Below are positions 7,093 through 34,606 of a stretch of DNA of 64,000 nt, in pieces; position 1 is the first letter of the stretch; every line of letters begins with the position of its first letter. This DNA is from Granulicella sp. Lineage in GTDB: Bacteria > Acidobacteriota > Terriglobia > Terriglobales > Acidobacteriaceae. The stretch spans positions 1,066 through 65,065 of the forward strand of contig JANYLK010000030.1 of assembly GCA_025357875.1 (NCBI GenBank). The letters are read 5' to 3'. The notes under the pieces are model-generated. The model saw only the letters and a program-made list of their open reading frames with translations. It was not told the origin of the DNA and ran no database searches. Made by a program: the position numbers and the translations under genes.

Positions 7093-10000
7093 TTACTGCA
7101 CAGTGAGGCTGATGGTGCCGTTGGCTGTGGTTGCACCCGAAGTTCCGGTTACCGTTACGGTGTAAGAACCCGGGGTGGTTCCGGGGGCAACAGTTGAGCT
7201 ATTTGGGGCGCTCGATCCACAGCCGGCGAAGCCCAAGGCCACTCCGATCGATAACAGCATTATGAGAAAGCCCGGCCAATTGCGCCGTCGGGGAACGCCG
7301 ACAAACATTACGAAGGCCAAGACGCTGCCCGCGGCCGAAGTTAGAAAGAGCCTGCTGCCCCTGTTCTCGGCCAATGATCCGGCGGTCGTGAAGATTGTCA
7401 GGGTCGAGGTTTGCGCGGTGGTGCCGATGAAGGAAACCGCGGAAGGAGACAGCGTGCAGGTAGCCGGGCTGTTGGCTGCAGCTGGAGTGACTGCGCAGTT
7501 GAGAGCGACCGTACCGGTGAAGCCGTTCGTCGGCGAGATGGAGATGACTGACGTATTCCCTATTACATCGCCGTGATGCACCGTAATATTATTTCCGCTG
7601 AACGCAAAGCCTGGTGTGGCAACAACGCTGAAAGAGACACCGGTCGCTGTGCTCAAGGTGCCGGAGGTTCCGGTGATTGTGATGTTCGCTGGACCACCGA
7701 TCGTCGCCGTGCCGGCGGCCGTCAGTGTCAGCACCTGCGTTCCGGCAACAGTTCCAACCGTGAAGCTGGCAGTGACTCCCGCCGGCAGGCCGTTCGCGGC
7801 AAGGGCCACGGTTCCATTGAATCCTCCCAGCGATGTCACGGTGATCGTGCTGGTCGCGCTGCTGGCCTGGGCAATGGTCAGCGTGGCCGGCGCGGCCACA
7901 AGTGTAAAGCTTGGAGGGACGTTGACGGTGAGCGCGATGATAATTGAATTAGTCAAGGTCCCAGCGGTTCCGGTGACGGTCACCGGGACAGCACCACCGG
8001 CCGACGCTGCAGCGCTGGCGCTCAGGGTGAGCGTGGTTGAGGCAGTGGCGGGATTTGTGGAGAATGATGCTGTAACGCCGCTGGGCAAACCGGTGGCCGC
8101 GAGGTTAACTCCGCCGGCAAAGCCGTTCGCGCCTGTAATCGTAATAGAATCGGTGACGCTGGTGCCTTGAACGATGGACACAGACGCCGATGCAGGAGCC
8201 AGATTGAAACTTGGCTGCAGGCTGACGGTCAACGTAATGGACGTAGCTGCGGTCAGGTTTCCGGAGGTTCCGGTGATATTGGTGGTGGCCGTGCCAACAG
8301 CCGCGGTTGCGGAAGCAGTGAAGGTGACGACACTGGTCCCGGTTGCGGGGTTGGTGCCAAAGGTCGCCGTGACGCCCGTGGGCAGTCCGGTAGATGCAAG
8401 TGTGACTGGACCTGTAAAGCCATAAGCAGCGGTAACATTGACGGTCGCAGTCCCAGACGCACCCTGCACCAAACTTAGCGAGGGAGCGGACGAAGCCAGT
8501 GTGAAGCTGGGTGCCCCGTTGACGGTGAGCGCGATGGAGGTAGATGCGCTTAGAGTTCCGGAAATCGCGTTGATGGTAATGGTCGATGTGCCAACCGCCG
8601 CGGCGCTATTGGCGGTGAATGTCAAGAGGCTGGAGCCGGTGGCGGGATTGGTCGCAAAGGCCGCCGTAACGCCGCTAGGCAAGCCGATCGCCGACAGAGT
8701 AACGCTGCCGGTAAAGCCGCCAAACGCTACCACGGAGATCGTACTATTGCCGGTGCTCCCCTGAAGGACCGCTAGAGTTGCCGGTGACGGCGACAGCGTA
8801 AAGCTGGGTGCAGTGTTGACGGTTACGGCGATGGTGGTGGTTTGCGTGACCGAACCAGAGGTGCCGGTAATCGTCACCGAGGTGGGACCGCCTGTCCCGG
8901 CCGTTGCAGCCGAGGTGAGGGTCAGCACACTGGTCCCGGTAGTGGAGGGGCTTGGGCTGAAGGAGGCTGTGACCCCTGCAGGTAGGCCACTGGCGGAAAG
9001 CGTAACGCTGCTCGCAAATGCTCCTTGATTTGTAACGGTGATGGTCGACGTAGTGCTGGCGCCCTGTGCGACCGTGAGAGAGCTGGAAGAAAAAGAGAGC
9101 GTAAAGCCAGAGCCGACCCCGCTTACCAGGATGGAAGCCGTGCTACCCGCCTGATCAGTCCCTGTGAGCGAGAGGCTGTCCGGGCCCGCAAGCGTAGGAG
9201 TAAAGCTCACCGTGGTTGTGAAGGATGCGCCTCCGCTGAGTGTGCTGGTGCAGGAGACGGACGGTATTACGGTCGCTGTCGCCATGGCGCTCGTCGATGC
9301 TACAAAAGCCAGCGACGGAGCCGGACTTCCGCCACAGTTGGTGTCGTTCAGCAGAGACGTAACTTGGCTGGTTGTTGTCGACGGACTAATCGCCGTACCC
9401 ACCGTTGAGGCCGGGACCGTTACGCTGTTCACCGTGACCTGGGCAACCGTATCGCCAGCGGTTCCCAGGGAGTTGGAATACGAGGCCAGATAAAGGTTCC
9501 CTTGCGTGTCCAGGGCCAGTGTCTTCGCTCCCTGGGGCGATACAGCATAGAGTGCCGTGGGTTTGCCGCCTGCGACAGGAATCCCGCCGAGGGTGTCTGG
9601 AAAGGCAAAGATACCGTCGCTCTGATCCGCAAAATATACGGTGTCGCCGCTCGCACTTCTCAGGACCGCCACGCCGTCCAGTTGATTGTCGAAGGTGCCG
9701 ACTGGCGACGGCGTCACGGTATAGAGCACTGTTGGCGACGAAACGTACCCGGTCGCGACTCCGTTGAAGCCCGTGCCCGCCGTAATCGGCAGTTCGTTCA
9801 GGTTGGAGGAGAAACTGGTGATTGCGTACGTCCCGAGATTCACGTAAATCGCTGAATCCGCGAAGAAGAGATTGCCTGCCGAATCGAAGGAGATGGGACC
9901 GACCAGCGGTTGGCCGGAGCTCAACGAGGGTGCGGGGGAGACTTTAGGCTCCGTGAAGATCAGTACGGGTGCGCCAGTGCCGCCCAGGCAGGTCAGGTTG

Positions 10001-12165
10001 CACTCGTAAATACTGTTACCGCCGCTGGAACCATCGCCGGCCGTCGCATAGAAAAGATCGCCCTTGGCGTCGAAGGCGAGCGAGGCTGGGTTGACAGCAC
10101 CCAAGTTGGTGGGCAGGACGCATTCCGTGGTGCTTGCTGCAGTGCAGACGGCGATAGAAGCCGTGGGCGTGGTGAATGCGGCGTAGCCGCCATTGGCAGC
10201 GCCGCCGATATATGGCAGCTTGACGATCGAGTTGACCGGCCCGTAGGGATTGCCGACGTAGATGTTGTCTTTGCTATCGACTGTCAACGCGCTTGCGCTG
10301 GCCCATGGGCCGAGTGTGGTGGCGGCTCCGGTTTGAGCGTTGAACAGAACCAGGTTTGAGCTGTTGGCCACAGCAATGGAGCCATTGCTGTTGACTGCGA
10401 AGCTGTTTCCAGCGGGATTGCCGGAGGCATACGCATAGCCGCCCAGGCTGGCACGCCAGTTGACCTGGCTCACCAACATCCGTGCGTTGGCGGGAACAGG
10501 GACCGGCGGTAACGTCGAAACCGTGAAGCTGTTGGTGACCGCCGTCGCCGCGGAGTACGTTCCGTTGCCAGCCTGCGAAGCCGTCAGAGTGCAGGTACCA
10601 GCCGCAATCAGCGACGCGGTGGCGGCACTGTTATTTACACTGCAGACGGATGCAGTGCTGGACGTGAAGGTTACCGGCAGACCAGAGCTTGCCGTGGCGT
10701 TCAGGCTCAGCGTGGTGCCAAGAGTCTGGGCGCCGGAATTGGCGAAGGTGATCGTTTGAGCAGTCGGCGAGCCGACGGTGAGGGCGATCGATGTGGTGGC
10801 GGTGATCGAGCCAAAGGTGCCCGTCACCGTGACGGGGATTGGCCCAGCAGTCGCCGCGGAACTGCTGGCGGTAAGAGTGAGCACCTGTGAACCTGCGACC
10901 GTCGAGTTGGCAAAGCTGGCGGTAACGCCACTGGGAAGGCCGCTGACGTCAAGCGTGACTGCACCGCTAAAGCCACCCTGCGTCGTGACCGAGATGACAT
11001 CTGTGGTGCTGAGTCCCTGTCCCACGGGAAGAGTAGATTTAGCAGGGGCAATTGTGAAGCCTGCGATGGTGGACCCGTACCATTTGGGCAGAGTGATCGT
11101 GCCCGCGGGCTTGTTCTGGGTAGAGTAGCCCGTGTCATTTGCCGAGGGCGCGGAGACCCTCCAGTCCCACCAGAAGACGCCCTTCATCCACGCAGTCTGG
11201 GCACTGAAGACCTGAAAAAATGCTTCATAACAATCCTGCTGCTCGGTCGGATCATACGTGCCGCCTAGACTGGCGTAGGGTGTCTCGTTGGTGCCGGGAG
11301 CACTGACATACCCAATCTCGGTAAAGATCAGCGGCTTGTTGTAGGTACTCTGCAGATTCTTGAGCGCCGATACGATGTTGAAGCCGGACTTATTGTTAGT
11401 CCACGCCGATATAAGTGCAGCAAGCGAAGGATCAGTCTGATTAGTAAGAGGAAAATAGCCATCCACGCCGATGATGTCGAGGTCCGCCCAAAAAGACACA
11501 GAGGTAAATTCGTCGCCAGCTCCGGTCGCATTCGACGCATACGTGAGCGTCAGGCTCGGATACTGGATGCGCAACTGGGTGATGATCGTCTCCCAATTGC
11601 TCTTGTACGCGGCGCCGCTAAGCGACTTGAACTCAGTGCCGATGACAAGCATCCCGACATTGTTCTGAACCGCAATCTGAGCGTAGTGCAGGATAAATGT
11701 TTGATAGCTGGCAAACCACGCAGTTGGATTGGTTGGAGCGAAGTTTCCTCGGAAGACGCCATCGAGCGAATCGACCTGAGGCTTCATCGAGACCACCAGA
11801 CCCTGGGCCTGTAGACTTCGGATCGCGCTGACAACCGCTGCGTCCGTGGGGCTTAGCGGATCGCGACTGCTGTTATAGCCAGGCGTACTGGGTGTCTCGG
11901 GAGCGATGACGTTCGATGTGGACGTCTGCTGGTACTGAGTCGCCATCACGGCCGTATAGTTGGCGCCGGTCGCACGGATGCTGCTGGCCGCGGAACTGCT
12001 ACTGAGAAATTCATTTGCCTGATACGAGATGAAGTTAAGTCCGTTGTAGGTAAAGCCGGACTGACTTTGCGCGAAGACACCTGGGGTGGACGAGGCCATC
12101 ATCAGCGTGGCGATGGCGCTGGACACGCCGAGAGAACGGATAAAAGAGTGGGAGGTTACGCGCAT
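7093..12165 (-). CDS. Large secreted multidomain glycoside hydrolase: GH113-type TIM barrel, beta-propeller-like region, tandem Ig-like repeats and C-terminal membrane tail
   Basis: Signal peptide (start placed at ATG 12165, 5 nt after the upstream stop). GH113-like motifs MKPQVD, LVIGTE, LDIIGVDGYFPL, PLIFTEIGY, GVFWWDW. Ser/Thr/Ala-rich ~100-aa repeats. Confidence 0.8.
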   Translation of the reverse strand: MRVTSHSFIRSLGVSSAIATLMMASSTPGVFAQSQSGFTYNGLNFISYQANEFLSSSSAASSIRATGANYTAVMATQYQQTSTSNVIAPETPSTPGYNSSRDPLSPTDAAVVSAIRSLQAQGLVVSMKPQVDSLDGVFRGNFAPTNPTAWFASYQTFILHYAQIAVQNNVGMLVIGTEFKSLSGAAYKSNWETIITQLRIQYPSLTLTYASNATGAGDEFTSVSFWADLDIIGVDGYFPLTNQTDPSLAALISAWTNNKSGFNIVSALKNLQSTYNKPLIFTEIGYVSAPGTNETPYASLGGTYDPTEQQDCYEAFFQVFSAQTAWMKGVFWWDWRVSAPSANDTGYSTQNKPAGTITLPKWYGSTIAGFTIAPAKSTLPVGQGLSTTDVISVTTQGGFSGAVTLDVSGLPSGVTASFANSTVAGSQVLTLTASSSAATAGPIPVTVTGTFGSITATTSIALTVGSPTAQTITFANSGAQTLGTTLSLNATASSGLPVTFTSSTASVCSVNNSAATASLIAAGTCTLTASQAGNGTYSAATAVTNSFTVSTLPPVPVPANARMLVSQVNWRASLGGYAYASGNPAGNSFAVNSNGSIAVANSSNLVLFNAQTGAATTLGPWASASALTVDSKDNIYVGNPYGPVNSIVKLPYIGGAANGGYAAFTTPTASIAVCTAASTTECVLPTNLGAVNPASLAFDAKGDLFYATAGDGSSGGNSIYECNLTCLGGTGAPVLIFTEPKVSPAPSLSSGQPLVGPISFDSAGNLFFADSAIYVNLGTYAITSFSSNLNELPITAGTGFNGVATGYVSSPTVLYTVTPSPVGTFDNQLDGVAVLRSASGDTVYFADQSDGIFAFPDTLGGIPVAGGKPTALYAVSPQGAKTLALDTQGNLYLASYSNSLGTAGDTVAQVTVNSVTVPASTVGTAISPSTTTSQVTSLLNDTNCGGSPAPSLAFVASTSAMATATVIPSVSCTSTLSGGASFTTTVSFTPTLAGPDSLSLTGTDQAGSTASILVSGVGSGFTLSFSSSSLTVAQGASTTSTITVTNQGAFASSVTLSASGLPAGVTASFSPSPSTTGTSVLTLTSAATAGTGGPTSVTITGTSGSVTQTTTIAVTVNTAPSFTLSPSPATLAVLQGSTGNSTISVVAFGGFTGSVTLSAIGLPSGVTAAFATNPATGSSLLTFTANSAAAVGTSTITINAISGTLSASTSIALTVNGAPSFTLASSAPSLSLVQGASGTATVNVTAAYGFTGPVTLASTGLPTGVTATFGTNPATGTSVVTFTASATAAVGTATTNITGTSGNLTAATSITLTVSLQPSFNLAPASASVSIVQGTSVTDSITITGANGFAGGVNLAATGLPSGVTASFSTNPATASTTLTLSASAAASAGGAVPVTVTGTAGTLTNSIIIALTVNVPPSFTLVAAPATLTIAQASSATSTITVTSLGGFNGTVALAANGLPAGVTASFTVGTVAGTQVLTLTAAGTATIGGPANITITGTSGTLSTATGVSFSVVATPGFAFSGNNITVHHGDVIGNTSVISISPTNGFTGTVALNCAVTPAAANSPATCTLSPSAVSFIGTTAQTSTLTIFTTAGSLAENRGSRLFLTSAAGSVLAFVMFVGVPRRRNWPGFLIMLLSIGVALGFAGCGSSAPNSSTVAPGTTPGSYTVTVTGTSGATTANGTISLTVQ
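7610..9108 (-). repeat. Five tandem ~300-bp (~100-aa) intragenic Ig-like repeats
   Basis: Each unit follows FTL....L.V.QG.S.T..ITV....GF.G.VTL...GLP.GVTA.F...P.T..S.LT.TA. A sixth copy follows the GH domain near 11070-10790. Confidence 0.85.
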
Positions 12166-12170
12166 TGAGT

Positions 12171-12875
12171 TCACTGTTTCACGCCTGTCAGTGTGAGGCA
12201 CCAGCTAGGTACGGCAAGCTGTTCGCCAGCGTGAAGGCCATTCCTTCCACCAACCCCGTTTACGGTTGAGCACTCCTCGTGAGCCGGGCAACCGCCTTCG
12301 CACCCGACAATCTTTGTCACCGCGATCTTGACCGCACGGACCGTAAAGCTCTGAACCGTGCCGCAGTAGCCGTCTCCGCCCCAGGAGCGGACGCAGACTG
12401 TGTCGCCAACCGACTTGCCCGTGGAGTGGGCGCCCGACGCGAGTAGCCAAGCCGCCATAGGTATGTCATCGCTGTTTTCCGCAACCAGCAGAGCCGAGCC
12501 GCCGAAGCGTGACTCAATGTTGAGGTTGGCACCGGCTGCGACAAGCGCCTTGGCAGTTTCGCCCTGATGATTTTGAACTGCAGCGATGAGCGCAGTGCGT
12601 CCTCCAGCGTCCGTCGCGTTGACGTCGGCACCGCTTGCGAGCAGCATTCTGACCGTGCTCGTCTCTCCAGCCTGCGCGGCGACAATTAGCCGAGTAAGTC
12701 CGCGTGCATCGCGCGCATCCTGGACTGCGACTGGAGGGTGGGGTGTCACAACTGCTTCCTGCGGCCGCGCGCAGGGAACGACGACGAGCAGCGCGAGAGC
12801 CGAAGTCGCAACGCTAACCCATAACCTAAACTTGCTGACAAAGAACGAACTCTGTGAAATCTTCGCAACGCGCAT
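12171..12875 (-). CDS. Secreted ankyrin-repeat protein with a Cys-rich C-terminal domain
   Basis: GGGAGA RBS, signal peptide and ankyrin repeats (LLASGADVNATDAGGRTALIAAV; LVAAGANLNIESRFGGSALLVA). The C-terminal ~80 aa contain 6 Cys. Confidence 0.85.
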   Translation of the reverse strand: MRVAKISQSSFFVSKFRLWVSVATSALALLVVVPCARPQEAVVTPHPPVAVQDARDARGLTRLIVAAQAGETSTVRMLLASGADVNATDAGGRTALIAAVQNHQGETAKALVAAGANLNIESRFGGSALLVAENSDDIPMAAWLLASGAHSTGKSVGDTVCVRSWGGDGYCGTVQSFTVRAVKIAVTKIVGCEGGCPAHEECSTVNGVGGRNGLHAGEQLAVPSWCLTLTGVKQ

Positions 12876-23215: not shown

Positions 23216-24391
23216 TCAAATCTCAGCTATGGCCCTTGATATGCCTGCTTCGAAGTCGTTCAGCGGCCCGATCAGACTGAGCACAACACGCGTTCTCTCG
23301 GACATCCCGTAGAATCCACCGGGATGCAGAACGACACCAAGCTCCCGCACCAATCGCTCCGCGCAGTCGATCTCACCTACACATCCAGGCAGCGACAGCA
23401 CGGCACTCCACCCTGCATCGACCTCAAACAATTGCAGCCGACCGGGCGCTTTATCGGCAATCTGGCGCAGAACAGCCAGGTTTGCTATAGCGCGTTCAAG
23501 TATCTGCGCCTGGATCAGCCCGCGTGCGGCAAGCCACGAAGGCATGGCCAATTGTACCGGCGCGTTCATCGAAAGAAACGTGTCTGCCACAATCTCGAGA
23601 CGACCCAATGCCTCATTGCGCAAGTGATCCGGACCGAGCGTGGCGATCCACGCAGCCTTCATCTGTGGCAAGCCGGCGATCTTGCTCAGGCCGCTGAGCA
23701 CGAAGGTCAATACGGGATGTTCGGCGCACGCGAAGCTACTCGAGGACGTTGATTCTCGAAGCGGGTAATCGAGAAACACCTCATCCACAATCAGTGCGAG
23801 TCCGCGCCGCGCACACAAGGCTTCTAGCAATTCCCTTTCGCGTGGACTGGTCCAGTGGCCGGTGGGATTGTTTGGATGGACGACGATCACCGCCCGCGTA
23901 CGCGGTGTGATTGACCGCTCCAACTCGGCGAAGTCGATCCACCAACCGTGGTCGTAAAACAGCGGATAAGGCCGCAGCCGCACATCGTCGAGGTCGGCCA
24001 GAAAGTCAAACAGAGGATAGCTTGGCTGTGCGACCAGCACCTCGTCGCCAGGATCACATAGCAGGCGAAACAGGAAGCTATAGCTCTCGCTGGTGCTTGT
24101 GGTGAGGACAAGATTGGCCGTAGAGACCTCAGCGCCGTGGTCCGCGTAGTACTTCGAGACTGCCTCGCGCGCAATCGCCAACCCACGCGGGTCGGGATCA
24201 TAGACCAGCGCACGAGCGTCCACCATCGGGCCCAGCAGCGCATCCACATCATAGGAAAACCCACAACGCGTGGGGTTCGATATGGTCAGGTCATAGAGTC
24301 TCCGCCTCGACACATGCGCTTCACGCACCGCCGCAGCGTAACTGCTCTCACTTCGGTCCCACGAAGTGCGCGAAGAAAATCGGGTCACCAT
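23216..24391 (-). CDS. PLP-dependent aminotransferase, class I/II
   Basis: VHPNNPTG, IVDEVF and SGLSKIAG (PLP Lys) motifs. Confidence 0.9.
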   Translation of the reverse strand: MVTRFSSRTSWDRSESSYAAAVREAHVSRRRLYDLTISNPTRCGFSYDVDALLGPMVDARALVYDPDPRGLAIAREAVSKYYADHGAEVSTANLVLTTSTSESYSFLFRLLCDPGDEVLVAQPSYPLFDFLADLDDVRLRPYPLFYDHGWWIDFAELERSITPRTRAVIVVHPNNPTGHWTSPRERELLEALCARRGLALIVDEVFLDYPLRESTSSSSFACAEHPVLTFVLSGLSKIAGLPQMKAAWIATLGPDHLRNEALGRLEIVADTFLSMNAPVQLAMPSWLAARGLIQAQILERAIANLAVLRQIADKAPGRLQLFEVDAGWSAVLSLPGCVGEIDCAERLVRELGVVLHPGGFYGMSERTRVVLSLIGPLNDFEAGISRAIAEI

Positions 24392-24413: not shown

Positions 24414-25811
24414 CTACAGCTTGTATGCCTTCCGCACAAGATTGACTGCCAGGTCCTGCACCACTTCAAACGCCTCAGGTTCGTCAAGTCGATGTTCAGC
24501 AACGAGTCTGGCAAGAAACGCGCAATCGACGCGCCGGGCAACATCGTGCCGCGCCGGAATCGACAGGAACGCGCGCGTGTCATCATTGAAGCCGACAGTG
24601 TTATAGAAACCCGCCGTCTCCATTGCCGTCTCACGGTATCGCATCATTCCCTCAGGCGAATCCAGGAACCACCATGGTGGCCCAAGCTTCACCGATGGAA
24701 AATGTCCGGCGATCGGCGCAAGTTCGCGGGAAAAGGTGGTCTCATCCAGCGTGAATAGTATCAGCGTAAAGTTCGCCTCATTGCCGTACTTCGATAGCAG
24801 AGGACGTAGCGCGCGAACATATTCTGTCGGCGAGGGGATGTCGGCACCTTTGTCGCGGCCAAATTTGTCGTAGACCCCCTTGTTGTAGTTGCGCACCGAA
24901 CCCGGATGGAGCTGCATGGTCAAGCCGTCCTCCACGCTCATCCCTGCCATCTCCGTCAGCATTTGAGCCTGAAAGAGTTCCACATCGCCCGTCTGCATTC
25001 GGCCAGTAAAGATGCGGTGGTAGAGCCGTTCGGCATCCTGCGTCGAGAGGTCCGCGGTGAGGGCCGTCAGGTGGCCGTGATCCGTGGCGGTGGCACCATT
25101 CTTCTTGAAGTATGCACGGCGCGAGCGCAGAGCCATAAGGTAGCCCTTCCAATTTGAGACGTCCTCACCGGCAACCTCGCCCAGCTTTTTCAGGTTCTCC
25201 TGGAAGCCCGTATACTCGGCATCCACTACAGCATCTGGGCGGAACGTCGGCAGAACGCGACCCTTCCATCCAGAGGCTTTGATGGCCTGATGGAATTCTA
25301 GCGAATCGAATGCCGCGTCCGTTGTGGAGAGTGCCTCGATGTTGAAGCGATCAAACAGCGCGCGTGGAAGAAACTCTGACGTCTCCAGCTTCCTTACGAT
25401 GATCTCGTAGTATTCATCCGCATTCGCCGGCGAAAGACGCTCCGTCAGGCCGAAGAGCTGGTCGAACGAGTAATCAAGCCAGAGCCTGGTCGGCGTGCCG
25501 CGAAACAAGTAGTAGTGCTTTGCGAAGATGCGCCACACATCGCGCGGATCAGCGCTTTCTTTGCTATCTACTTGCGGAATTCCCAATGACTCCAGCGAAA
25601 CGCCTTGCGAATAAAGCATTCGGAAGATGTAATGATCGGGCTGAATGAATAGCGCGGCAGGATTTGGGAACGGCTTGTTCTCCGCGAACCAACGCGGGTC
25701 CGTGTGGCCATGCGGTGAGATGATGGGTAGGTCGCGAACGGTGTCATACAGCTTAATTGCTATGGCGCGTGCAGTCGTTTCGGCAGGAAAAAGCCGGTTT
25801 GCATCCAGCAT
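24414..25811 (-). CDS. uxaC: Glucuronate (uronate) isomerase
   Basis: LPIISPHGHTDP, QPDHYIFRML, TDHGH, GPPWWFLDS, GFNDDTRAFLSIPARHD. Confidence 0.95.
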   Translation of the reverse strand: MLDANRLFPAETTARAIAIKLYDTVRDLPIISPHGHTDPRWFAENKPFPNPAALFIQPDHYIFRMLYSQGVSLESLGIPQVDSKESADPRDVWRIFAKHYYLFRGTPTRLWLDYSFDQLFGLTERLSPANADEYYEIIVRKLETSEFLPRALFDRFNIEALSTTDAAFDSLEFHQAIKASGWKGRVLPTFRPDAVVDAEYTGFQENLKKLGEVAGEDVSNWKGYLMALRSRRAYFKKNGATATDHGHLTALTADLSTQDAERLYHRIFTGRMQTGDVELFQAQMLTEMAGMSVEDGLTMQLHPGSVRNYNKGVYDKFGRDKGADIPSPTEYVRALRPLLSKYGNEANFTLILFTLDETTFSRELAPIAGHFPSVKLGPPWWFLDSPEGMMRYRETAMETAGFYNTVGFNDDTRAFLSIPARHDVARRVDCAFLARLVAEHRLDEPEAFEVVQDLAVNLVRKAYKL

Positions 25812-26003: not shown

Positions 26004-26465
26004 TCAAAAGGCCTCAGCGGACGCAGCCGCACGTTTCGGCTGATCGAGTAATCCATACCGGACGAAAGTAAACGTCACGGTATAGGTAAGCCATATAACA
26101 AAAGCAAAATCGTAGACCAGTCCAAACCCCTGGTCTGCAAAAAAAATCGAGGCTAGCATTACGACCACACCTGACAAGCCAATCCGCCCCGCGCGTCCAC
26201 GACGTTTCCGCCGCCTACTCCACGGCAAGGTAAGGGCAAAAAGGCATGCGGTGAATGCGATCGTCGCGCCGACTATAAGGGCAATCTTAAAGATTCCCAA
26301 ACCCTCCATTCCGCGATCTAGTTGTGGGTGGTCGGTTGCGAATTCCGGCAAGAATCGCATGCAGGAATAGAAGCCGGCCGCTCCGCCAAGAGGCAGCGCG
26401 GCTGATGCATAGACAATTCGGGCTGGCAAACTGACTGCATTCATCCATTGAGCATAGCGCAGCAT
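26004..26465 (-). CDS. Small integral membrane protein (about 4 TM), possibly the last gene of the hopanoid operon
   Basis: Four hydrophobic segments with a basic RRRKRRGR loop. The start is uncertain (26465 ATG; the ORF extends to 26519). Confidence 0.55.
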   Translation of the reverse strand: MLRYAQWMNAVSLPARIVYASAALPLGGAAGFYSCMRFLPEFATDHPQLDRGMEGLGIFKIALIVGATIAFTACLFALTLPWSRRRKRRGRAGRIGLSGVVVMLASIFFADQGFGLVYDFAFVIWLTYTVTFTFVRYGLLDQPKRAAASAEAF

Positions 26466-26502
26466 TTGCGGACGAGTGGAGACCTGCCGAACGTCGCCAT
26501 CT

Positions 26503-27807
26503 TTAGGGCTTGATAACAATCTTCATCGATCCGGCTTGCGGATGTGATGCCAGATTGATTGCTGCCGCTGCATCCTCAAGCGAGAACCTGTGCGAGATAA
26601 GCCGCGTTAGTTCGAAGCTCCCGTCCCTGTAACCATCGAACACGAGTCGCGCAACCTCATCATTGATCGCAGCCGACGCGGAGTATGACCCCATAAGTGT
26701 CTTCTCATCCATGCATACGGCGGCAGGATCGAATGGCGCCTCGCCATGCTGCGTTGACGCAAACAGCATCACTCGCCCGCCCGGCCGAATCGCACCCATC
26801 GCAGTCGCAATCAGCGCATCCGCGCCCACTGCTACGAGCGCGACGTCGGCGCCTCGTCCCTCCGTCACAGCCTTGGCCGCGGCTACAACGTCACCACTCC
26901 CGTCCAGTGGATGGTTCAACCCAAACGTCGTGGCAATTGCGTGTCGCTCCGGATATAGATCGCTGGTCAGCACCGTTGCGCCCGTCCTCCGTGCAAGCGC
27001 CGCTAGCAATATCCCAATTGGCCCTTGTCCAATCACCAGTATCGTCTCGTCCGGTTGAAGCTTAAGCAGCCGCACAGCCTTGAAGCAGGTATTCACCGGC
27101 TCGATAAACGCAGCTTGTTCGAATGGTATGTCGTCGGGAATCTTGATCAGGCCCGCCGTCTTCCCCTCCCTGCCAACAATCCAATCCATCACGCGGATGT
27201 ACTCGGCGAAGCCTCCGCCGGCCGGCGCAAAGCCTGCGGTACAACCTACCTTTTTGTAAGTCTCGCACTGCGCAAAGGTCTGCTTGCGGCAGTAGTAGCA
27301 CCGGCCGCAGGGGATGTGATGATAGGCCATCACGCGGTCACCGATCGCAAAGTCCTGAACGCCGTCGCCGACCATCGCAATCGTCCCAGCCATCTCGTGC
27401 CCGAAGATGCGCGGAGCAGAGTGCGAACCTGAATGAATCTTCTTCAAATCCGTCCCGCAGATCCCACAGGTATCAATGCGCACCAACACTTCGCCCACGC
27501 CAATCGCCCCATCGGCGTTGAGTGGCATTGGCACCGTCTCCACACGCACATCGTTGATCCCGCGATAAACTGCGGCGCGCATGGTTGCCGGAATCGTCGG
27601 CAAGGTGACTACTGGCTTCGCGCCGATTCGCGCAGTCCCGATCGGAGTGGCACTGATGGCATTTGCGTCGATATTCGCGGCACTGATTTCCGCACCGCTG
27701 ATGCGTCCTGTGCATATCGAGGGAGCACTGATTGACGCGGTGCGAATCTGCTGTCCTGTGCTCGATGCTGCATGCAACGCTTCGGGACCGCTTGAATCGT
27801 TCGACAT
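26503..27807 (-). CDS. Zn-dependent medium-chain alcohol/polyol dehydrogenase
   Basis: CGICGTD, GHE, structural Zn site CxxCxxCx7C (CGRCYYCRKQTFAQC), IEP and GQGPIG. It has a 70-aa N-terminal extension and starts 7 nt after the hpnG stop. Confidence 0.9.
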   Translation of the reverse strand: MSNDSSGPEALHAASSTGQQIRTASISAPSICTGRISGAEISAANIDANAISATPIGTARIGAKPVVTLPTIPATMRAAVYRGINDVRVETVPMPLNADGAIGVGEVLVRIDTCGICGTDLKKIHSGSHSAPRIFGHEMAGTIAMVGDGVQDFAIGDRVMAYHHIPCGRCYYCRKQTFAQCETYKKVGCTAGFAPAGGGFAEYIRVMDWIVGREGKTAGLIKIPDDIPFEQAAFIEPVNTCFKAVRLLKLQPDETILVIGQGPIGILLAALARRTGATVLTSDLYPERHAIATTFGLNHPLDGSGDVVAAAKAVTEGRGADVALVAVGADALIATAMGAIRPGGRVMLFASTQHGEAPFDPAAVCMDEKTLMGSYSASAAINDEVARLVFDGYRDGSFELTRLISHRFSLEDAAAAINLASHPQAGSMKIVIKP

Positions 27808-27814
27808 TCTTCTC

Positions 27815-28495
27815 TCAGTCTCTATTTCTGTACCAGTCTAGCTCGACTTGAAGTGCCTTTGTCAGCGCGGCCAGGGCTTTCCCGCTATTCCGTCCTAGCG
27901 CGATAACCTTGCCCCACATCATGGGTCGCAATGCCACATGCAGAGCGAACGCACCCTCCTGGAACTGACCTTCCGAGGTCGCAAATTTGGAAAGCCCATC
28001 TAGTTCGAAGTCCGCAGCATCTGACACAGCCTTGATCGCCCGGAAGTGAAGGCCGTGCATGCGTGCCAGACGTGCAACAACCGCCGCTTCCATATCAACC
28101 GCATCCGCGTTATACAAGCTGCGGAGCCGAGTTTTTTCGCTCACGCTGGCAACCGCATCCGCAGTCACCAAGATCTGCTTGAACTGTGGATCATCGAATC
28201 TTTCGCCAGTGGTGCTGTTGATGACATTACCCGCACGAACGATCTCCGCCACACCGAGCGCCGGATTGCATGCACCCGCAAGGCCTGCGGAGATTAGCGC
28301 TGTCACCGGCATCGCGGCCATTGCAGCTTCAACGGCGAGCGTCGCACGCTTTGCTCCCATTCCGGCGCAAGCGACGACCCCATAGCCGTTGGTGTAGACC
28401 ACGACTCGGCCGGGAAGCTGCCGCTTCTCCCAGCCCTTCACCAGCGCAGCTACCTCACGAGGAAGCGCCGTGATGATCGCCGGACATTCCTTCAC
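27815..28495 (-). CDS. hpnG: Hopanoid-associated nucleoside phosphorylase (HpnG-like)
   Basis: PNP/MTAN-family motifs (ITALPREV, CAGMG, ISAGLAGA, AVDMEAA, IKAVSD). The GTG start at 28495 overlaps the hpnA TGA. The gene sits in the shc/hpnH operon. Confidence 0.8.
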   Translation of the reverse strand: MKECPAIITALPREVAALVKGWEKRQLPGRVVVYTNGYGVVACAGMGAKRATLAVEAAMAAMPVTALISAGLAGACNPALGVAEIVRAGNVINSTTGERFDDPQFKQILVTADAVASVSEKTRLRSLYNADAVDMEAAVVARLARMHGLHFRAIKAVSDAADFELDGLSKFATSEGQFQEGAFALHVALRPMMWGKVIALGRNSGKALAALTKALQVELDWYRNRD

Positions 28496-29502
28496 AGAGG
28501 CTTTCGTTTTAGCGGCGGCGCATACCCATTTGCGAGGAACCACTCGATGGCGGCACGCATCGCGTTGTAGACGGGCAGCACACGGAAGCCGAGGTCGCGC
28601 TCTGCCTTCCCAGACGACGCGAACATGCATTTACGTCCCATACGGACAGCCTCAACTGTCGCACGCGGTTCTTTCCCACGCAGCTTGCCTGTGATCGTTT
28701 CATCGAAGAACGCGAAGGCCATCGCTAGCGCATGCGGCACCTTGATCCTCGGCGATGGCAGTCCAGTAATCGCAGACATGCGATCGAGAATTTGCTTGAG
28801 CGTTAGATTCTCGCCCCCAAGAATGTAACGCTCGCCTGGCGTTCCGCTTTCCAGTGCAACCAAGTGCATGCGCGCAACTTCCGACACATCCACAAGGTTT
28901 AGGCCGGTATCGACGTACGCAGGGAATTTGCGATTGAGAAAGTCCACAGTTATCCGGCCTGTCGGAGTTGGCTTCGCATCGCCGGCGCCAATCGGCGTTG
29001 TGGGATTGAGAATCATTACATGCTGGCCTGCTTGCGCAGCCTCGATCGCCACCTGTTCGGCCATAAACTTCGAGCGTTTGTACGGCCCGATCATGTCGGC
29101 AAGCGAGACCGCCGTACTTTCATCCACGATGGTGCCGTCGGTCTTGAATCCCATGGTAGCGACGCTGGACGTGTAGACAACTTTGGCGACGCCCTCCTCT
29201 CGCGCAATTCGCAAAAGCTCGCGCGTGCCATCTACGTTAGCCGAGTACATCTCCTTCGGATCGCGCACCCAAAGCCGATAGTCCGCAGCCACATGCACCA
29301 AAGCATCACATCCGCGCAGTGCCGTGCGCGACGATTCCGGGTTACGCAGGTCCCCGACAACGACTTCAGCCGCCAGCCCTTCAATTGCCGCCAGTTTGCT
29401 TGTCGATCGAGCGAGCAGGCGCAGTTCCGCTCCCTCTGAGGCATATGCGTGCGCCACATGATTTCCGACAAATCCCGTCGATCCAGTAAGAAAAACTTTC
29501 AT
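28492..29502 (-). CDS. hpnA: Hopanoid-associated NAD-dependent epimerase/dehydratase (HpnA)
   Basis: Extended SDR motifs TGSTGFVG, HVAADYRLW, YKRSK, NPTTPIG and PAYVDTGLNLVDV, in hopanoid operon context. Confidence 0.9.
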   Translation of the reverse strand: MKVFLTGSTGFVGNHVAHAYASEGAELRLLARSTSKLAAIEGLAAEVVVGDLRNPESSRTALRGCDALVHVAADYRLWVRDPKEMYSANVDGTRELLRIAREEGVAKVVYTSSVATMGFKTDGTIVDESTAVSLADMIGPYKRSKFMAEQVAIEAAQAGQHVMILNPTTPIGAGDAKPTPTGRITVDFLNRKFPAYVDTGLNLVDVSEVARMHLVALESGTPGERYILGGENLTLKQILDRMSAITGLPSPRIKVPHALAMAFAFFDETITGKLRGKEPRATVEAVRMGRKCMFASSGKAERDLGFRVLPVYNAMRAAIEWFLANGYAPPLKRKPL

Positions 29503-30050: not shown

Positions 30051-31190
30051 TTAGTCTCCTGAGATTTCTTGCAGCGCTGGACTCGCGGCGTTCGCCGTTG
30101 GTTCCGCAATCTGAACCAGCGGTGCCGTGTGGGCTGGCTTCCATTCGTTCAAGAGCTTCATCGCACCATCATCGGCATAGGTGTCGAAGAAGATCGCCTT
30201 CGCGGTCTGCAGCAGCCCTTTGATCGAGCCAAAGGTGTAATTGACTCCGCTCGCCTCGTAACCCGAATGCACCATGCAGTTCGCGCACTTCGGATTGCCG
30301 GATTCAGTGCCGTAATTCTGCCACTCGACCGTCTCCATGAGTTCCTGAAAGGTATCGGCGTAGCCATCCTGCAGCAGGTAGCAAGGCTTCTGCCATCCAA
30401 AGATTGAGAACGTCGGCATCCCCCACGGCGTGCACGTCAGGTGCTTTTTGCCCATCAGAAATTCCATAAACATAGGAGAAGCATTGAAGCGCCAGGTCTT
30501 CTTGCGATTGGAAAGAATGGAACGGAAGAGTTTCTTCGATCGCGCGCGTCCGAGAAAATGCTTCTGATCCGGCGCCTTGTCATACGTATATCCCGGCGAC
30601 ACCATCATGCTCTCGACGCCAACCTCCATCAGTTCGTCGAAGTGCGCGCGAACGCTATTCGGGTCGGCTCCGTCGAAGAGTGTGGTGTTGGTCGTGACGC
30701 GAAAACCCGCGGCGACCGCGGCTCGTACGCCCTCCATCGCAATGTCGTATCCACCCTCGCGGCACACAGAGAAGTCGTGATGCTCGCGCTGTCCATCCAC
30801 ATGCACCGAGAAGGAGAGATACTTGCTCGGCGTAAACAGGTGCAGCTTCTCTTTCAACAAAAGAGCGTTGGTGCACATGTAAACGTACTTCTTCCGCGCC
30901 ACCAGGCCAGCAACAATCTCCGGCATCTGCGGATGCAACAGGGGCTCGCCGCCCGGAATCGCGACCATCGGCGTGCCACATTCCTCAGCAGCCCTGAAGC
31001 ACTCTTCCGGCGTCAACTCAGCCTTCAGGATGTGGGCCGGATATTGGATCTTGCCGCATCCGGCGCACGCCAGGTTGCAGCGAAACAGCGGCTCCAGCAT
31101 CAGCACCAGGGGATACTTTTTGCGTCCCTTGAGCTTCTGCTTCAGCACGTAACTTGCGACGGTCCACGCTTGCGAGACAGGTACTGCCAT
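30051..31190 (-). CDS. hpnH: Adenosyl-hopene transferase HpnH (radical SAM)
   Basis: PLVLMLEPLFRCNLACAGCGK (CxxxCxxC), GGEPLLHP and a C-terminal KCANCMVHSGYE typical of HpnH. Start at ATG 31190. Confidence 0.93.
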   Translation of the reverse strand: MAVPVSQAWTVASYVLKQKLKGRKKYPLVLMLEPLFRCNLACAGCGKIQYPAHILKAELTPEECFRAAEECGTPMVAIPGGEPLLHPQMPEIVAGLVARKKYVYMCTNALLLKEKLHLFTPSKYLSFSVHVDGQREHHDFSVCREGGYDIAMEGVRAAVAAGFRVTTNTTLFDGADPNSVRAHFDELMEVGVESMMVSPGYTYDKAPDQKHFLGRARSKKLFRSILSNRKKTWRFNASPMFMEFLMGKKHLTCTPWGMPTFSIFGWQKPCYLLQDGYADTFQELMETVEWQNYGTESGNPKCANCMVHSGYEASGVNYTFGSIKGLLQTAKAIFFDTYADDGAMKLLNEWKPAHTAPLVQIAEPTANAASPALQEISGD

Positions 31191-31275
31191 TGAGGTTTCT
31201 CCTTTTCGACTGATGCTGCTTGCCACTGCACAACACACCCGCCAGCAACATATCTATCAGCACCCAACAAAATTC

Positions 31276-33306
31276 CTACGCTGCTGCAGCTTCCCGCTCC
31301 ATCATGCGCTTGTAGGTCGTCAAAGCAAGCAGTGGGAAATAATCGCGATACAGGTGATACGCCAGATAGAACACACGGGGAAAGCCTGTCCCGGTGTAGA
31401 TAGCTTCGCCGTTACGTTCTTCGGCAGACTCGTCCCATGTTCCCAGCGGCGACTGCTTCGAGATCAGCCACCGAATACCCTTTGCCACTGAGTCCGAACG
31501 AGTGTCTCCCGCAGCGAGTAGGCCGAGCACTGCCCACGCGGTCTGTGAAGGCGTACTCGGCCCAATCCCTCGCTGCAAAGGATCGTCGTAGCTTCCACAG
31601 GTCTCGCCCCATCCGCCGTCCGCATTCTGCACCATGCGAATCCACTCCGCCGCATTCACAATCGCTGGCTCGTGGCTCCAGACGCCCATGGCCTCCAGTC
31701 CGCGCAGTACCAGGAAAGTCCCGTACAAGTAGTTGACACCCCAGCGTCCGAACCAACTTCCATCGGGTTCCTGCTCGTCGAGCACGAATTGGATCGCCTT
31801 CTCCACTCGCTTGTCGCGTCGCGTGAAGCCGTAGTTCGCCAGCATCTCCAGAATGCGCCCGGTAATATCGACGGTCGGCGGATCAAGCATCGCATTGTGA
31901 TCGGCGAATGGAATGTACTGGAAGATCATCTTCGTGTTGTCGCGGTCGAAGCTCGCCCATCCGCCATTCCTGCACTGCATTGCGAAGATCCAGTCCAGCG
32001 CTCGTTGCGAGACCTCGTGCTGATAACGCTCCTGCGGATTACGCACCTGATTTAACGCCAGCAACACTTGCGCGGAGTCGTCCACGTCAGGATAAAACTC
32101 GTTATTGAATTCGAATGCCCATCCACCCGGAGTAACATTTTTCACGCTCACAGCCCAATCACCCTTATGCCGAACTTCCTTAGACAACAGCCAGTCTACG
32201 GCCTTCAACAGTCGCGGATCGTCTTTGGGAACTCCGGCCTCGCCCAGCGCGTAGACGGCCTGCGCCGTGTCCCATACCGGAGACATGCAAGGCTGCATTC
32301 GGAAGGTCGGCGTCGGGTATTTCAACTCGCCGTCGGGATTATCAATGCCGAGTTTCTCGAACTCGTCCATTGCGCGAATGAATTGCGGATCGTCCGGCGT
32401 ATACCCCAGACAGGCAAGCGCAACAATCGCATTCAGCATGGCAGGATAGATCGCGCCTAGCCCATCGGACATCTCGAAACGTTCGAGCAACCACTGCTCC
32501 GCCTTCTCCAGCGCGATCTTGCGCAGAGGCCGAATGTGAATGCGTTCAAACCAGTGCGTAATCCGATCAACCCCGAGAAAGAAATTCCGCCAGCTAATCG
32601 GATGCTTGCGGTCCCACCGCAAGTGAAGGTCTGCATTTTCGCGTCCACCCACGAAAAGTTCGTCGATTCCCTGTTCTGGGGTCAATTTCTTGAATGGCTT
32701 CTTCGCGTAGATGATCGAGAGAGGGACAAGAATCGCGCGCGACCACGCTGAGATTTCGTAAATATTGAAGTAGAACCAGTTCGGAAACAGGACGATCTCT
32801 GGCGGAACAGCAGGCACCGCGTCGTAGTCGTACTGGCCCAGCGCGCAGAGGTAGATCTTGCTGAAGGTGTTGCACTCCGTGACGCCGCCGTTCGCGAGGA
32901 TCCAGGTCCGCGCTTTGACGAGTACCGAATGCTCCGCCGACCAGCCCATCAGCTTCAACGCGAAATACGCCTTCACGCCGAGAGAGATATTTGACGGCCC
33001 GCCGGGGTAGATACTCCACCCACCATCCTCATTCTGGTGGCGCAAAATTTCGTTGACCGCGCGTTCCATTTTACCGCGGTCACCCGTGCCTAGCAGCGTA
33101 TGCATGAAGATGTAGTCCGACTCAAGCATCGAGTCAGCTTCCAGCTCACCGCACCAGTAACCGTCGGGATGTTGCAGCCCCAGCAGCCAATCCGTTGCGT
33201 GCGCGATGCCCAACGCTACCTCGCTCAGGCCAACGTCCATACGGCCATAGCGCGGCTGCACGGGCTTTGCGGGCGCCGCCTTCGGATTTCGTGGAAATGT
33301 ACTCAT
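31276..33306 (-). CDS. shc: Squalene-hopene cyclase
   Basis: DxDD motif (YPDVDDSA) and multiple QW motifs (QHPDGYW, QNEDGGW, QCRNGGW, QEPDGSW, QNADGGW). Confidence 0.97.
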   Translation of the reverse strand: MSTFPRNPKAAPAKPVQPRYGRMDVGLSEVALGIAHATDWLLGLQHPDGYWCGELEADSMLESDYIFMHTLLGTGDRGKMERAVNEILRHQNEDGGWSIYPGGPSNISLGVKAYFALKLMGWSAEHSVLVKARTWILANGGVTECNTFSKIYLCALGQYDYDAVPAVPPEIVLFPNWFYFNIYEISAWSRAILVPLSIIYAKKPFKKLTPEQGIDELFVGGRENADLHLRWDRKHPISWRNFFLGVDRITHWFERIHIRPLRKIALEKAEQWLLERFEMSDGLGAIYPAMLNAIVALACLGYTPDDPQFIRAMDEFEKLGIDNPDGELKYPTPTFRMQPCMSPVWDTAQAVYALGEAGVPKDDPRLLKAVDWLLSKEVRHKGDWAVSVKNVTPGGWAFEFNNEFYPDVDDSAQVLLALNQVRNPQERYQHEVSQRALDWIFAMQCRNGGWASFDRDNTKMIFQYIPFADHNAMLDPPTVDITGRILEMLANYGFTRRDKRVEKAIQFVLDEQEPDGSWFGRWGVNYLYGTFLVLRGLEAMGVWSHEPAIVNAAEWIRMVQNADGGWGETCGSYDDPLQRGIGPSTPSQTAWAVLGLLAAGDTRSDSVAKGIRWLISKQSPLGTWDESAEERNGEAIYTGTGFPRVFYLAYHLYRDYFPLLALTTYKRMMEREAAAA

Positions 33307-33417: not shown

Positions 33418-34431
33418 CTAATGCTGAATCGGCGGCGCTGATGCAATTGCCTGAACGATCTCTGGAGGAAGCCCGAAGCGAACATTCTCCGGCATCACTT
33501 CCACTTCGTCGACCGACCCATACCCCATGTCCTGCAAATAATTCACCACATCCTGAACCAGCACCTCAGGAGCAGAGGCTCCCGCTGTAACCGCGACCGT
33601 GTTAACCCCCTCAAGCCACTCCGGCTGGATCGATTCCGCGGAGTCAATCAGGTACGAATTTGTGTCCAGATTTTTCGACACTTCAACCAGCCGATTCGAG
33701 TTCGAACTGTTCTTCGAACCAACCACCAGCACGAGGTCGGCGCCATGCGCCACATTCTTCACTGCAACCTGGCGATTCTCTGTCGCATAGCAGATGTCCT
33801 GCGCGGCCGGCCCGGCGATGTTCGGGAACTTTCGCTTCAGGGCGTTGATCATGATCCCCGCCTCGTCCAGCGAGAGCGTCGTCTGGGTCAGATACGCGAC
33901 CTTGTTCGGGTCGGGAACCACCAACGCATCGACCTCTCTAACCGTGGAAACCACCTGGGTCACGGTCGGCGCCTCACCCTGCGTGCCCTCAACTTCTTCA
34001 TGATCGCGATGGCCAACCAACACCAGCGAATAGCCCTGCTTGGAGAATTTGATCGCCTCCAGATGCACCTTCGTCACCAAGGGGCAGGTCGCATCAATCA
34101 CCTTCAGATTGCGCTCCTTGGCACGCTCCCGTACTGCCGGCGACACACCGTGAGCCGAGTAAATCACTCGAGCGCCTTCTGGAACTTCGTCTAACTCATT
34201 GACGAAGATGGCACCCTTCTTCGCTAGGTCGGTCACAACATAGCTGTTATGAACGATTTCCTTGCGTACATAGATCGGGGCGCCAAACGTCTCGAGCGCA
34301 ATCCGCACAATATCGATGGCGCGCACAACTCCCGCGCAGAAGCCCCGAGGCTTCAAAAGCAGAACCCTTTTCGTGGAGTTCGCGGTGTCTTTTTGAGCAA
34401 GGCTAGGAGAGCCTGTAGCAATAGTATTCAC
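33418..34431 (-). CDS. ispH: 4-hydroxy-3-methylbut-2-enyl diphosphate reductase
   Basis: PRGFCAGV, SAHGVS, DATCPLVTKVH, ICYATENRQ and GSKNSSNS. The start is uncertain (GTG 34431 chosen). Confidence 0.95.
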   Translation of the reverse strand: MNTIATGSPSLAQKDTANSTKRVLLLKPRGFCAGVVRAIDIVRIALETFGAPIYVRKEIVHNSYVVTDLAKKGAIFVNELDEVPEGARVIYSAHGVSPAVRERAKERNLKVIDATCPLVTKVHLEAIKFSKQGYSLVLVGHRDHEEVEGTQGEAPTVTQVVSTVREVDALVVPDPNKVAYLTQTTLSLDEAGIMINALKRKFPNIAGPAAQDICYATENRQVAVKNVAHGADLVLVVGSKNSSNSNRLVEVSKNLDTNSYLIDSAESIQPEWLEGVNTVAVTAGASAPEVLVQDVVNYLQDMGYGSVDEVEVMPENVRFGLPPEIVQAIASAPPIQH

Positions 34432-34606
34432 AGGTTTAGTATACCGTGTCCGGGCTTCCGGCGACACCTCTCAGGTACCCGCCAAGGTGCCGTCAGACGC
34501 AATCTTTACCACTCTAAATTTCAGGCATTCCGGGAGCCCGAGTCGAGTCGGCAGACCAATCACGCCGACGGGATTCAAACCCGAATTCCGCCAGCGTGTC
34601 AGTCAA

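Follow-up and report, generated by a model that had tools for sequence, protein, structure and literature searches.

A zinc-dependent dehydrogenase is encoded directly behind an hpnG-like gene in a 64,000-nucleotide stretch of DNA from the acidobacterium Granulicella sp. (assembly GCA_025357875.1, contig JANYLK010000030.1, positions 1,066 to 65,065), which is called the window below. The question raised by this locus is which reaction such an enzyme catalyzes among genes of hopanoid biosynthesis. Bacteriohopanepolyols, from which geohopanes derive, rank among the major membrane lipids of bacteria, and for one step of their formation, from ribosylhopane to bacteriohopanetetrol (BHT), no enzyme has been assigned since the discovery of the intermediate. 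The initial annotation of the window drew attention to this gap, which the papers of 2025–26 confirm (PMC12583986; PMC13459092); a 2026 review predicts the step to be non-enzymatic (PMC13459092). The annotation proposed that the dehydrogenase is the missing reductase, or that it sets or inverts the stereochemistry of the side chain together with HpnA.

It should be stressed that the gene is not new. In Acidobacteria of subdivisions 1 and 3, the published "cluster C" consists of hpnA-hpnG and then ug1, a "Zn-dependent alcohol dehydrogenase, ca. 370 AA", while "cluster A" consists of ug2, a Zn-binding alcohol dehydrogenase of ~350 aa, and then hpnC-hpnD-hpnE, and the functions of ug1 and ug2 were given as "not established" (Sinninghe Damsté et al. 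2017, Front Microbiol 8:968, PMC5462960). The dehydrogenase of the window lies just 3' of hpnA-hpnG and is of the same zinc type, and it is thus ug1. That paper places ug1 and ug2 in separate clusters, with neither a tandem nor a split in cofactor type, and does not report them from Vicinamibacteria or Armatimonadota. New here are the conserved tandem that ug1 forms with ug2, the difference between the two enzymes, which are of NAD type and mostly of NADP type, respectively, and the occurrence of the pair in those two groups. Our literature search turned up no functional work on either gene and no open paper on BHT-34R.

The answer that we arrive at is that ug1 belongs to a conserved module of two dehydrogenases, in which it is the enzyme of NAD type and the other, ug2, is mostly of NADP type. 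The two enzymes belong to the medium-chain dehydrogenase/reductase (MDR) superfamily and are called MDR1 and MDR2 in the following. We predict, with a probability of roughly 0.4, that MDR1 is the NAD-linked half of a couple acting on the side chain that derives from HpnG.

The dehydrogenase and its tandem partner

MDR1 is a zinc-dependent MDR of the polyol/threonine-dehydrogenase type. Both domains of the superfamily are present, the GroES-like catalytic domain (PF08240, 89.5 bits, E=2e-25) and the Rossmann cofactor domain (PF00107, 72.8 bits, E=3e-20), with scores above the respective cutoffs. When aligned to 4cpd and 4ej6, MDR1 has Cys117 (in the motif GICGTD), His137, Glu138 and Glu236 as ligands of the catalytic zinc and Cys114 as an additional conserved cysteine; the structural zinc site is complete. 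The zinc-ligand columns are invariant or nearly so, and motif counts show both sites to be kept over 166 orthologues. The β2 strand of the cofactor domain ends with Thr-Ser-Asp283-Leu ("TSDL"), and the position of Asp283 is occupied by Asp or Glu in essentially all of these orthologues, in every clade, which marks MDR1 as having a predicted preference for NAD. The initial annotation, which had read the protein as a sorbitol-dehydrogenase-type enzyme with Cys/His/Glu zinc ligands and an NAD-type aspartate, was therefore correct on these points.

The AF2 model of MDR1 is that of a standard MDR, with a predicted local distance difference test (pLDDT) score of 82.5. The best Foldseek match is the putative dehydrogenase 4ej6 (E=8e-33), and other near folds are butanediol dehydrogenase, threonine dehydrogenase, RspB, ECK1772 (5vm2), ketose reductase, L-arabinitol 4-dehydrogenase, HpsP and sorbitol dehydrogenase. 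By sequence, the best PDB match is the alcohol dehydrogenase TADH (4cpd, 130 bits), which we take to be an NADH-dependent aldehyde and ketone reductase. MDR1 stays below all the NCBIfam equivalog cutoffs that were compared, namely those of IolM (161 vs 450, the best), TDH (143 vs 380), GatD (124.5 vs 550), L-idonate 5-dehydrogenase (100 vs 469) and Ahr (71 vs 470), and the JGI label of the family, "L-iditol 2-dehydrogenase", is an automatic name. The model TIGR03366, "HpnZ_proposed", was also considered, but the score is below the cutoff and the name is a phosphonate-related coincidence. Motifs specific to the MDR1 family are HHxPC, TAGF-P-GGG and GSYS.

The surroundings of MDR1 were compared over 173 related loci, mapped by tblastn with flanks of at most 10 kb. 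They comprise 80 GTDB species representatives, 80 metagenome contigs seeded from distant relatives, and individual representatives; the sets are lists of the best 80 and are biased toward abundant soil Acidobacteria, and the taxonomy of the clades comes from a few named proteins. An hpnG homologue is found at most 600 nt upstream of MDR1 in 124 of the 144 loci with enough flank, and in 115 of 121 within the Acidobacteriaceae clade; at some loci, e.g. L132, tblastn misses a divergent hpnG whose domain is found by Pfam. This linkage is far beyond chance. In four clades, the tandem has no hpn genes nearby.

In most lineages, MDR1 is followed by MDR2, with a median gap of ~40 nt, and then by hpnC-hpnD(-hpnE), the usual order being hpnA-hpnG-ug1-ug2-hpnC-hpnD-hpnE. 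The full layout, shc-hpnH-hpnA-hpnG-MDR1-MDR2-hpnC-hpnD-hpnE, is present even where shc is only ~45% identical to that of the window. The MDR1-MDR2 tandem is found in at least eleven sequence clades, among them Acidobacteriaceae/Terriglobales, Bryobacteraceae, Vicinamibacteria (three named matches) and Armatimonadota. Seven of the eleven adjoin hopanoid or squalene-type genes, and these are the only neighbors that recur between clades, with hpnA-hpnG upstream and hpnC-hpnD(-hpnE) downstream. L099 has just one such neighbor, an SQS_PSY gene, with a GT2 glycosyltransferase behind it. The order in an Armatimonadota metagenome-assembled genome (MAG; L169, 8946-16323) is aminotransferase-MDR1-MDR2-hpnC-hpnD-hpnE, and a contig of 39% G+C has MDR1-MDR2-hpnC-hpnD with hpnH on the opposite strand. 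The gene directly before MDR1 in L169 encodes a 343-aa protein of the aminotransferase/beta-eliminating-lyase family; the window has an aminotransferase as well, of class I/II, but this one is common only to the nearest relatives.

In the sub-lineage of the window, the tandem is split between the two MDRs and MDR1 has remained with hpnG. It is because MDR2 has moved elsewhere in this lineage that the NADP-type partner was overlooked in the initial annotation. An isolated hpnG-MDR1 unit, with neither hpnA nor MDR2 at its sides, occurs in L006, L007, L010 and L024 (Granulicella paludicola). In two of these, L024 (8192-11110, strain DSM 22464) and L006 (7961-11080, an Acidobacteriaceae MAG), a gene for a LacI-family regulator directly precedes the unit, and the flanks are otherwise unrelated (a TonB-type outer-membrane protein, a cytochrome oxidase and a glycogen phosphorylase). 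Two Acidobacteriaceae loci form exceptions: a Pseudacidobacterium (L027, 471-5497) has MDR1-MDR2-hpnC-hpnD behind a divergent ABC-transporter gene, with hpnG missing, and a Granulicella MAG (L029, 2307-6799) has a solitary MDR1 behind a GH31 glycosidase.

MDR2 is, like MDR1, a complete zinc enzyme of the polyol/threonine-dehydrogenase branch. At the end of its β2 strand, the acidic residue is absent in most clades and replaced by Gly/Ala/Val followed by Lys/Arg, the exceptions with an acidic residue being L085 and L171. Among proteins of solved structure, its best relative is the NADP(H)-dependent ketose reductase of whitefly (1e3j), in which "TARS" aligns with "VVKR" of MDR2, so that the Gly/Ala/Val-Lys/Arg residues coincide with those determining the NADP specificity of 1e3j. 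From these residues, MDR2 is predicted to be mostly of NADP type. A conserved tandem of two polyol-type enzymes, one of NAD and one of NADP type, suggests a couple in which one enzyme oxidizes and the other reduces. That MDR1 and MDR2 work in one process is a solid conclusion, and so is the genetic tie of this process to the squalene-hopanoid genes in Acidobacteriota and also in Armatimonadota.

The substrate of the couple

We now turn to the process itself. The catalytic zinc of MDR1 would bind a head group of vicinal-diol or polyol type, the enzyme would transfer a hydride between a carbinol carbon and NAD(H), and the NADPH-type partner MDR2 would perform the complementary reduction. Such an oxidize-then-reduce couple would be able to finish, relocate or invert a hydroxyl group. 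In the organism of the window, the substrate would be the ribose-derived C5 side chain delivered by HpnG, that is, ribosylhopane or the C-34/C-35 end of BHT, and the candidate reactions are an oxidation or reduction at C-34/C-35, the finishing of the tetrol, or an epimerization. The hopanoid side chain appears to be the single most likely substrate of MDR1 here. This role is plausible because a polyol-type enzyme is placed after the enzyme that releases the ribosyl, and thus polyol-like, head group, and it is supported by the fact that hpnG and MDR1 stay paired through several rearrangements, with a junction that appears to be co-transcribed (see below). Further support comes from the existence of an unassigned step for which an oxidized intermediate, the reported hopanoid ribonylhopane, is known, and from the near folds of MDR1, which are those of enzymes acting on polyols, diols and ketoses.

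A more specific version, in which ug1 and ug2 are the missing enzymes of Acidobacteriota that convert ribosylhopane to BHT via a keto (or lactone) intermediate and in doing so set or invert the configuration at C-34, is considered unlikely. Its stereochemical part corresponds to the second proposal of the initial annotation, which agrees with the NAD/NADP pairing better than a reduction by one enzyme does, but the partner would be ug2 and not HpnA.

A number of observations weigh against a role on the side chain. In the Armatimonadota MAG and in L085, L097 and L027, the tandem stands beside hpnC-hpnD(-hpnE) without hpnG, and the same probably applies to L118, where the upstream flank is missing. 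Outside the superclusters of acidobacterial type, the module is found beside hpnCDE and never beside hpnG alone. In the Vicinamibacteria, the neighbors of the tandem are queF and a proline-dehydrogenase-like gene, and 10 kb of flank contain no hpn genes (L148); the tandem of the divergent clades L167, L171 and L173 has none either, as far as their short flanks reach. According to the 2017 survey, on which this absence rests, hopanoids are missing from subdivision 6 (Vicinamibacteria), as are shc, hpnH and hpnG, but hpnC/D/E are present, and C. thermophilum makes BHT without ug2 (PMC5462960). Of 108 columns that do not vary in the hopanoid-linked clades, 93-101 are retained by the Vicinamibacteria orthologues; a singleton from a heterocystous cyanobacterium, where the context is unrelated, also retains 88, and the conservation therefore speaks for orthology rather than for a particular substrate. 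Only about ten full-length clusters (50% identity), this singleton among them, exceed 250 bits in a set of 1.84 billion representatives, i.e. the orthogroup is small. To our knowledge, the hpn clusters of R. palustris, Z. mobilis and Burkholderia contain no such gene.

The Vicinamibacteria block was observed in five loci (L148, 8724-12116; L082, L119, L116, L154) and consists of queF (preQ1 synthase), the proline-dehydrogenase-like gene, MDR1 and MDR2. On the other strand of L148, 3-6 kb away, there are genes for a large protein with a PNP_UDP_1 domain, which reads as AMP-nucleosidase-like, and for a pyrimidine-nucleoside phosphorylase.

This distribution bears directly on the first proposal of the initial annotation, that MDR1 alone reduces the open-chain aldehyde of ribosylhopane to BHT, directly after HpnG. 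A ribosylhopane reductase would be expected to occur with hpnH and hpnG and to be absent where they are absent, a pattern from which the tandem departs. The tandem in Vicinamibacteria, the absence of ug2 from C. thermophilum and the small orthogroup together mean that MDR1 cannot be the general BHT-forming reductase. In favor of the proposal are the persistent adjacency and coupling to hpnG, conserved in Acidobacteriaceae, the fact that it is MDR1 and not MDR2 that remains with hpnG when the tandem breaks, the NADH-dependent aldehyde reduction presumed for its best PDB match, and the vacancy of the step. However, the cofactor site is of NAD type, while a cell-free activity of Methylobacterium (Bodlenner 2015) is reportedly NADPH-dependent. 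In addition, the nearest characterized relatives act on secondary alcohols and ketoses, the NADP-type MDR2 and the NADP-looking HpnA of the short-chain dehydrogenase/reductase (SDR) family are equally well placed, and the Vicinamibacteria have orthologues without a reported hpnG. Reduction by MDR1 alone is therefore judged distinctly improbable, and the interpretation of the initial annotation is partly supported: it was right about an NAD-type polyol MDR tightly coupled to hpnG and about the vacancy of the step.

The distribution of the tandem, which occurs beside squalene genes without hpnG and also in Vicinamibacteria, fits the squalene genes at least as well as those of the side chain. The pair could accordingly serve the part of the pathway catalyzed by HpnC/D/E, acting on hydroxysqualene or on another alcohol derived from squalene or farnesyl diphosphate, and its place after hpnG would only reflect the layout of the supercluster. 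In most Acidobacteriaceae, as well as in loci of Bryobacteraceae type and of cluster 3, the Armatimonadota MAG, L085, L097, L118 and L027, hpnC-hpnD(-hpnE) follows directly on the tandem. At least ug2 is absent from C. thermophilum, whose HpnD is of a foreign type (PMC5462960), and the Vicinamibacteria, with hpnCDE but without the later genes, would also fit. On the other hand, HpnC, HpnD and HpnE suffice for squalene formation in E. coli, and acidobacteria that have lost hpnC and/or hpnE still keep ug2 (PMC5462960). The Vicinamibacteria tandem does not adjoin hpnCDE, the hpnG-MDR1 unit persists away from these genes, and it is not obvious what a polyol-type MDR would do on a hydrocarbon-like substrate. 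We consider this explanation unlikely, and the link of ug1 to the side chain is a tentative one.

The two enzymes could also form a soluble couple of an NAD polyol dehydrogenase and an NADPH ketose reductase, merely co-located or co-regulated with membrane-lipid genes related to stress. Its role could be the turnover of compatible-solute polyols, a shift of reducing equivalents from NADH to NADPH, or the handling of sugars of the 5-deoxyribose type. The four clades with no hpn genes near the tandem would be in line with this, as would the small polar substrates of all the closest characterized relatives, the JGI family name, and the LacI-type sugar regulator in front of hpnG-MDR1 in L024 and L006. 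However, hopanoid and squalene genes are the only recurring neighbors, in seven clades and two phyla, and the unit is located in the middle of the co-directional shc-hpnH-hpnA-hpnG-...-hpnCDE supercluster even at ~45% identity of shc. Neither a sugar transporter nor a kinase nor an isomerase is conserved alongside, and the glucuronate isomerase gene is confined to the window and its three nearest relatives. This scenario, too, is regarded as improbable.

The side-chain couple thus remains the reading that we prefer. Few groups of bacteria are as abundant in soil as the Acidobacteria, and the dehydrogenase pair of their hopanoid cluster constitutes a concrete two-gene target for the BHT step and for the origin of the isomers, ug1 being a testable candidate for the missing step. 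If the pair indeed acts at C-34, it would provide the genetic basis for the BHT stereoisomers that are used as environmental biomarkers. At the same time, its presence in lineages reported to lack the side-chain genes warns against annotating hopanoid functions from synteny alone.

The gene cluster in the window

All genes of the cluster are co-directional on the minus strand, in the order ispH, shc, hpnH, X, hpnA, hpnG-like and MDR1 (Table 1). The coordinates and profile matches bear out the order given in the initial annotation, from shc to the dehydrogenase, and the 7-nt gap before the latter. Neither hpnC/D/E nor a second MDR of the ug1/ug2 type was found in the window.

Table 1. Positions of the hopanoid cluster genes, of the functional sites of MDR1 and of the genes downstream, in window coordinates.
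Feature	Position	Strand	Basis or remark
ispH	33418-34467	-	NF002189, 459 bits
shc, squalene-hopene cyclase	31276-33306	-	L001 orthologue with SQHop_cyclase_N and SQHop_cyclase_C
hpnH, radical-SAM adenosylhopane synthase	30051-31238	-	TIGR03470, 529 bits, match from residue 17
X ("ug3"), 148 aa	29602-30048	-	ATG 2 nt past the hpnH stop
hpnA, extended SDR	28492-29502	-	TIGR03466, 467 bits (cutoff 368)
hpnG-like nucleosidase/phosphorylase, 226 aa	27815-28495	-	PF01048, 66 bits
MDR1 (ug1) dehydrogenase, 434 aa	26503-27807	-	PF08240 and PF00107
MDR1 N-terminal extension, 75 residues, about nine pentapeptide-like units	27583-27807	-	Ile every fifth residue
MDR1 catalytic zinc ligands	Cys117 27457-27459; His137-Glu138 27394-27399; Glu236 27100-27102	-	alignment to 4cpd/4ej6
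MDR1 structural zinc lobe, Cys167/170/173/181	27265-27309	-	conserved columns
MDR1 cofactor site, GQGPIG (residues 260-265) and Asp283	26959-27030	-	Rossmann motif and end of β2
Small membrane-protein reading frame 3' of MDR1	26004-26519	-	weak MFS_1 match
Glucuronate isomerase, uxaC	24414-25811	-	NF002794, 572 bits
Class I/II aminotransferase	23216-24391	-	downstream of the cluster

The cyclase is 70-91% identical across the Acidobacteriaceae loci. The true start of hpnH is probably Met17, at about 31190. The gene X comes after hpnH in all Acidobacteriaceae loci that cover the region, and the 2-nt spacing recurs in L001. It matches no Pfam or NCBIfam family, and its homologues, at least 120 among the matches listed, are all of about 147-152 aa; those that bear a name are "hypothetical" save one called a 3D-domain protein. 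The low-confidence model (pLDDT 61) has a small β-barrel core with weak likeness to Hfq/Sm and WYL domains. X may be a partner of HpnH or a ligand-binding protein; a sugar isomerase that feeds a ketoreductase was also considered, but this idea found no support.

The hpnG-like gene is the only one of the phosphorylase family in the cluster, and its GTG start overlaps the TGA stop of hpnA as GTGA. With TIGR03468 the protein reaches only 79.6 bits, below the curated HpnG cutoff of 187.1, and the assignment is thus based, with this caveat, on the phosphorylase-superfamily domain and the context. Surveys that rely on TIGRFAM thresholds would therefore miss HpnG in Acidobacteria. The protein carries the motif "SDAAD", which we take to resemble the catalytic "SDxAD" of methylthioadenosine nucleosidases. 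In the 2017 survey, the acidobacterial hpnG was called by BLAST (PMC5462960).

The ATG of MDR1, at 27807, lies 7 nt beyond the stop of the hpnG-like gene (27815-27817). This start includes the N-terminal extension, which matches no Pfam family and for which disorder is predicted (pLDDT <50 for residues 1-67), and distant Acidobacteriaceae align only from about residue 50-75. The frame of the extension is, however, open in 39 of the 40 close homologues inspected, and the period-5 pattern of Ile is kept while the residues vary (P0002-P0040). This makes the start and the 7-nt gap credible and rules out a start at Met76, which would give a gap of ~230 nt. The extension also explains the length of 434 aa compared to ~370 aa for the published ug1. 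Fusions of MDR1 with HpnG were looked for among its long relatives, but P0198, P0126 and P0143 are over-extended calls in high-GC DNA. P0162 (602 aa, 36% identical) is instead a fusion of a nucleotidyl-transferase domain to an MDR, an architecture that is reminiscent of TarI/TarJ in CDP-ribitol synthesis.

Near-identical DNA is present in sediment and glacier metagenomes, and the nearest genomes are Acidobacteriaceae MAGs and Granulicella. Contigs from an ice metatranscriptome cover shc, hpnH, X and MDR1, and one of them crosses the hpnG/MDR1 junction (27726-27981), which appears to be co-transcribed.

The small membrane protein downstream of MDR1 likely starts at Met26, which gives 146 aa. 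Its homologues, 51-59% identical, are found only in L001, L002 and L008, and it is possibly the "ug5" transporter of ~140 aa (Damsté 2017, Table S1, PMC5462960). A gap of 190 nt with a promoter-like site separates the cluster from uxaC and the aminotransferase gene; a scan for promoters and terminators gave no more sites than shuffled sequence. A hexuronate operon of MDR1 with these two genes was considered and rejected: they follow MDR1 only in the same three nearest relatives and therefore probably form a separate unit. Elsewhere in the window, there are a KaiC-like double ATPase beside a histidine kinase (2358-5108, plus strand) and three very large reading frames of 1702, 1110 and 1480 aa, the last two overlapping (7093-12201, minus strand; 54981-62025, plus strand).

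Comparison with known systems

Within the operon, HpnA is the natural point of comparison. It is encoded two genes upstream of MDR1 and is likewise a nucleotide-dependent oxidoreductase (TIGR03466), of the SDR family as opposed to the MDR family. HpnA has been proposed for the step from ribosylhopane to BHT by Sinninghe Damsté et al. (2017), but it is reported to be dispensable for BHT formation in B. cenocepacia and to be absent from Rhodopseudomonas (PMC5462960).

The fold of MDR1 is that of the polyol-dehydrogenase branch of the MDR superfamily, with template modeling scores, normalized to the target, of 0.82-0.89. The structures compared are sorbitol dehydrogenase (1pl6/3qe3), ketose reductase (1e3j), L-arabinitol 4-dehydrogenase (3m6i), xylitol dehydrogenase (7y9p), threonine dehydrogenase (2dfv) and butanediol dehydrogenase (6ie0). 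Shared with this branch are the Cys-His-Glu(+Glu) catalytic zinc, the four-Cys structural zinc and the NAD-type Asp. The identity is only 22-29%, however, and MDR1 is found in the context of lipid rather than sugar genes. The MDR ribulose-5-phosphate reductases of TarJ type convert a ketopentose to ribitol, a polyol skeleton as in the side chain of BHT. The substrate of TarJ, in contrast to the one proposed for MDR1, is phosphorylated and soluble.

For the couple as a whole, the closest parallels are systems in which two dehydrogenases act in succession. HpsP (8wwd), which has rank 11 among the structural neighbors of MDR1, is presumably one half of a racemase composed of two dehydrogenases. 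HpsO and HpsP racemize dihydroxypropanesulfonate, one enzyme oxidizing the secondary alcohol beside the terminal CH2OH and the second one reducing it again. An analogous inversion is carried out in fungi by the NAD+-dependent L-arabinitol 4-dehydrogenase and the NADPH-dependent L-xylulose reductase. The NAD/NADP pairing of MDR1 and MDR2 resembles both the HpsO/HpsP and the fungal arabinitol systems, and we use this as a working analogy that does not imply a shared substrate.

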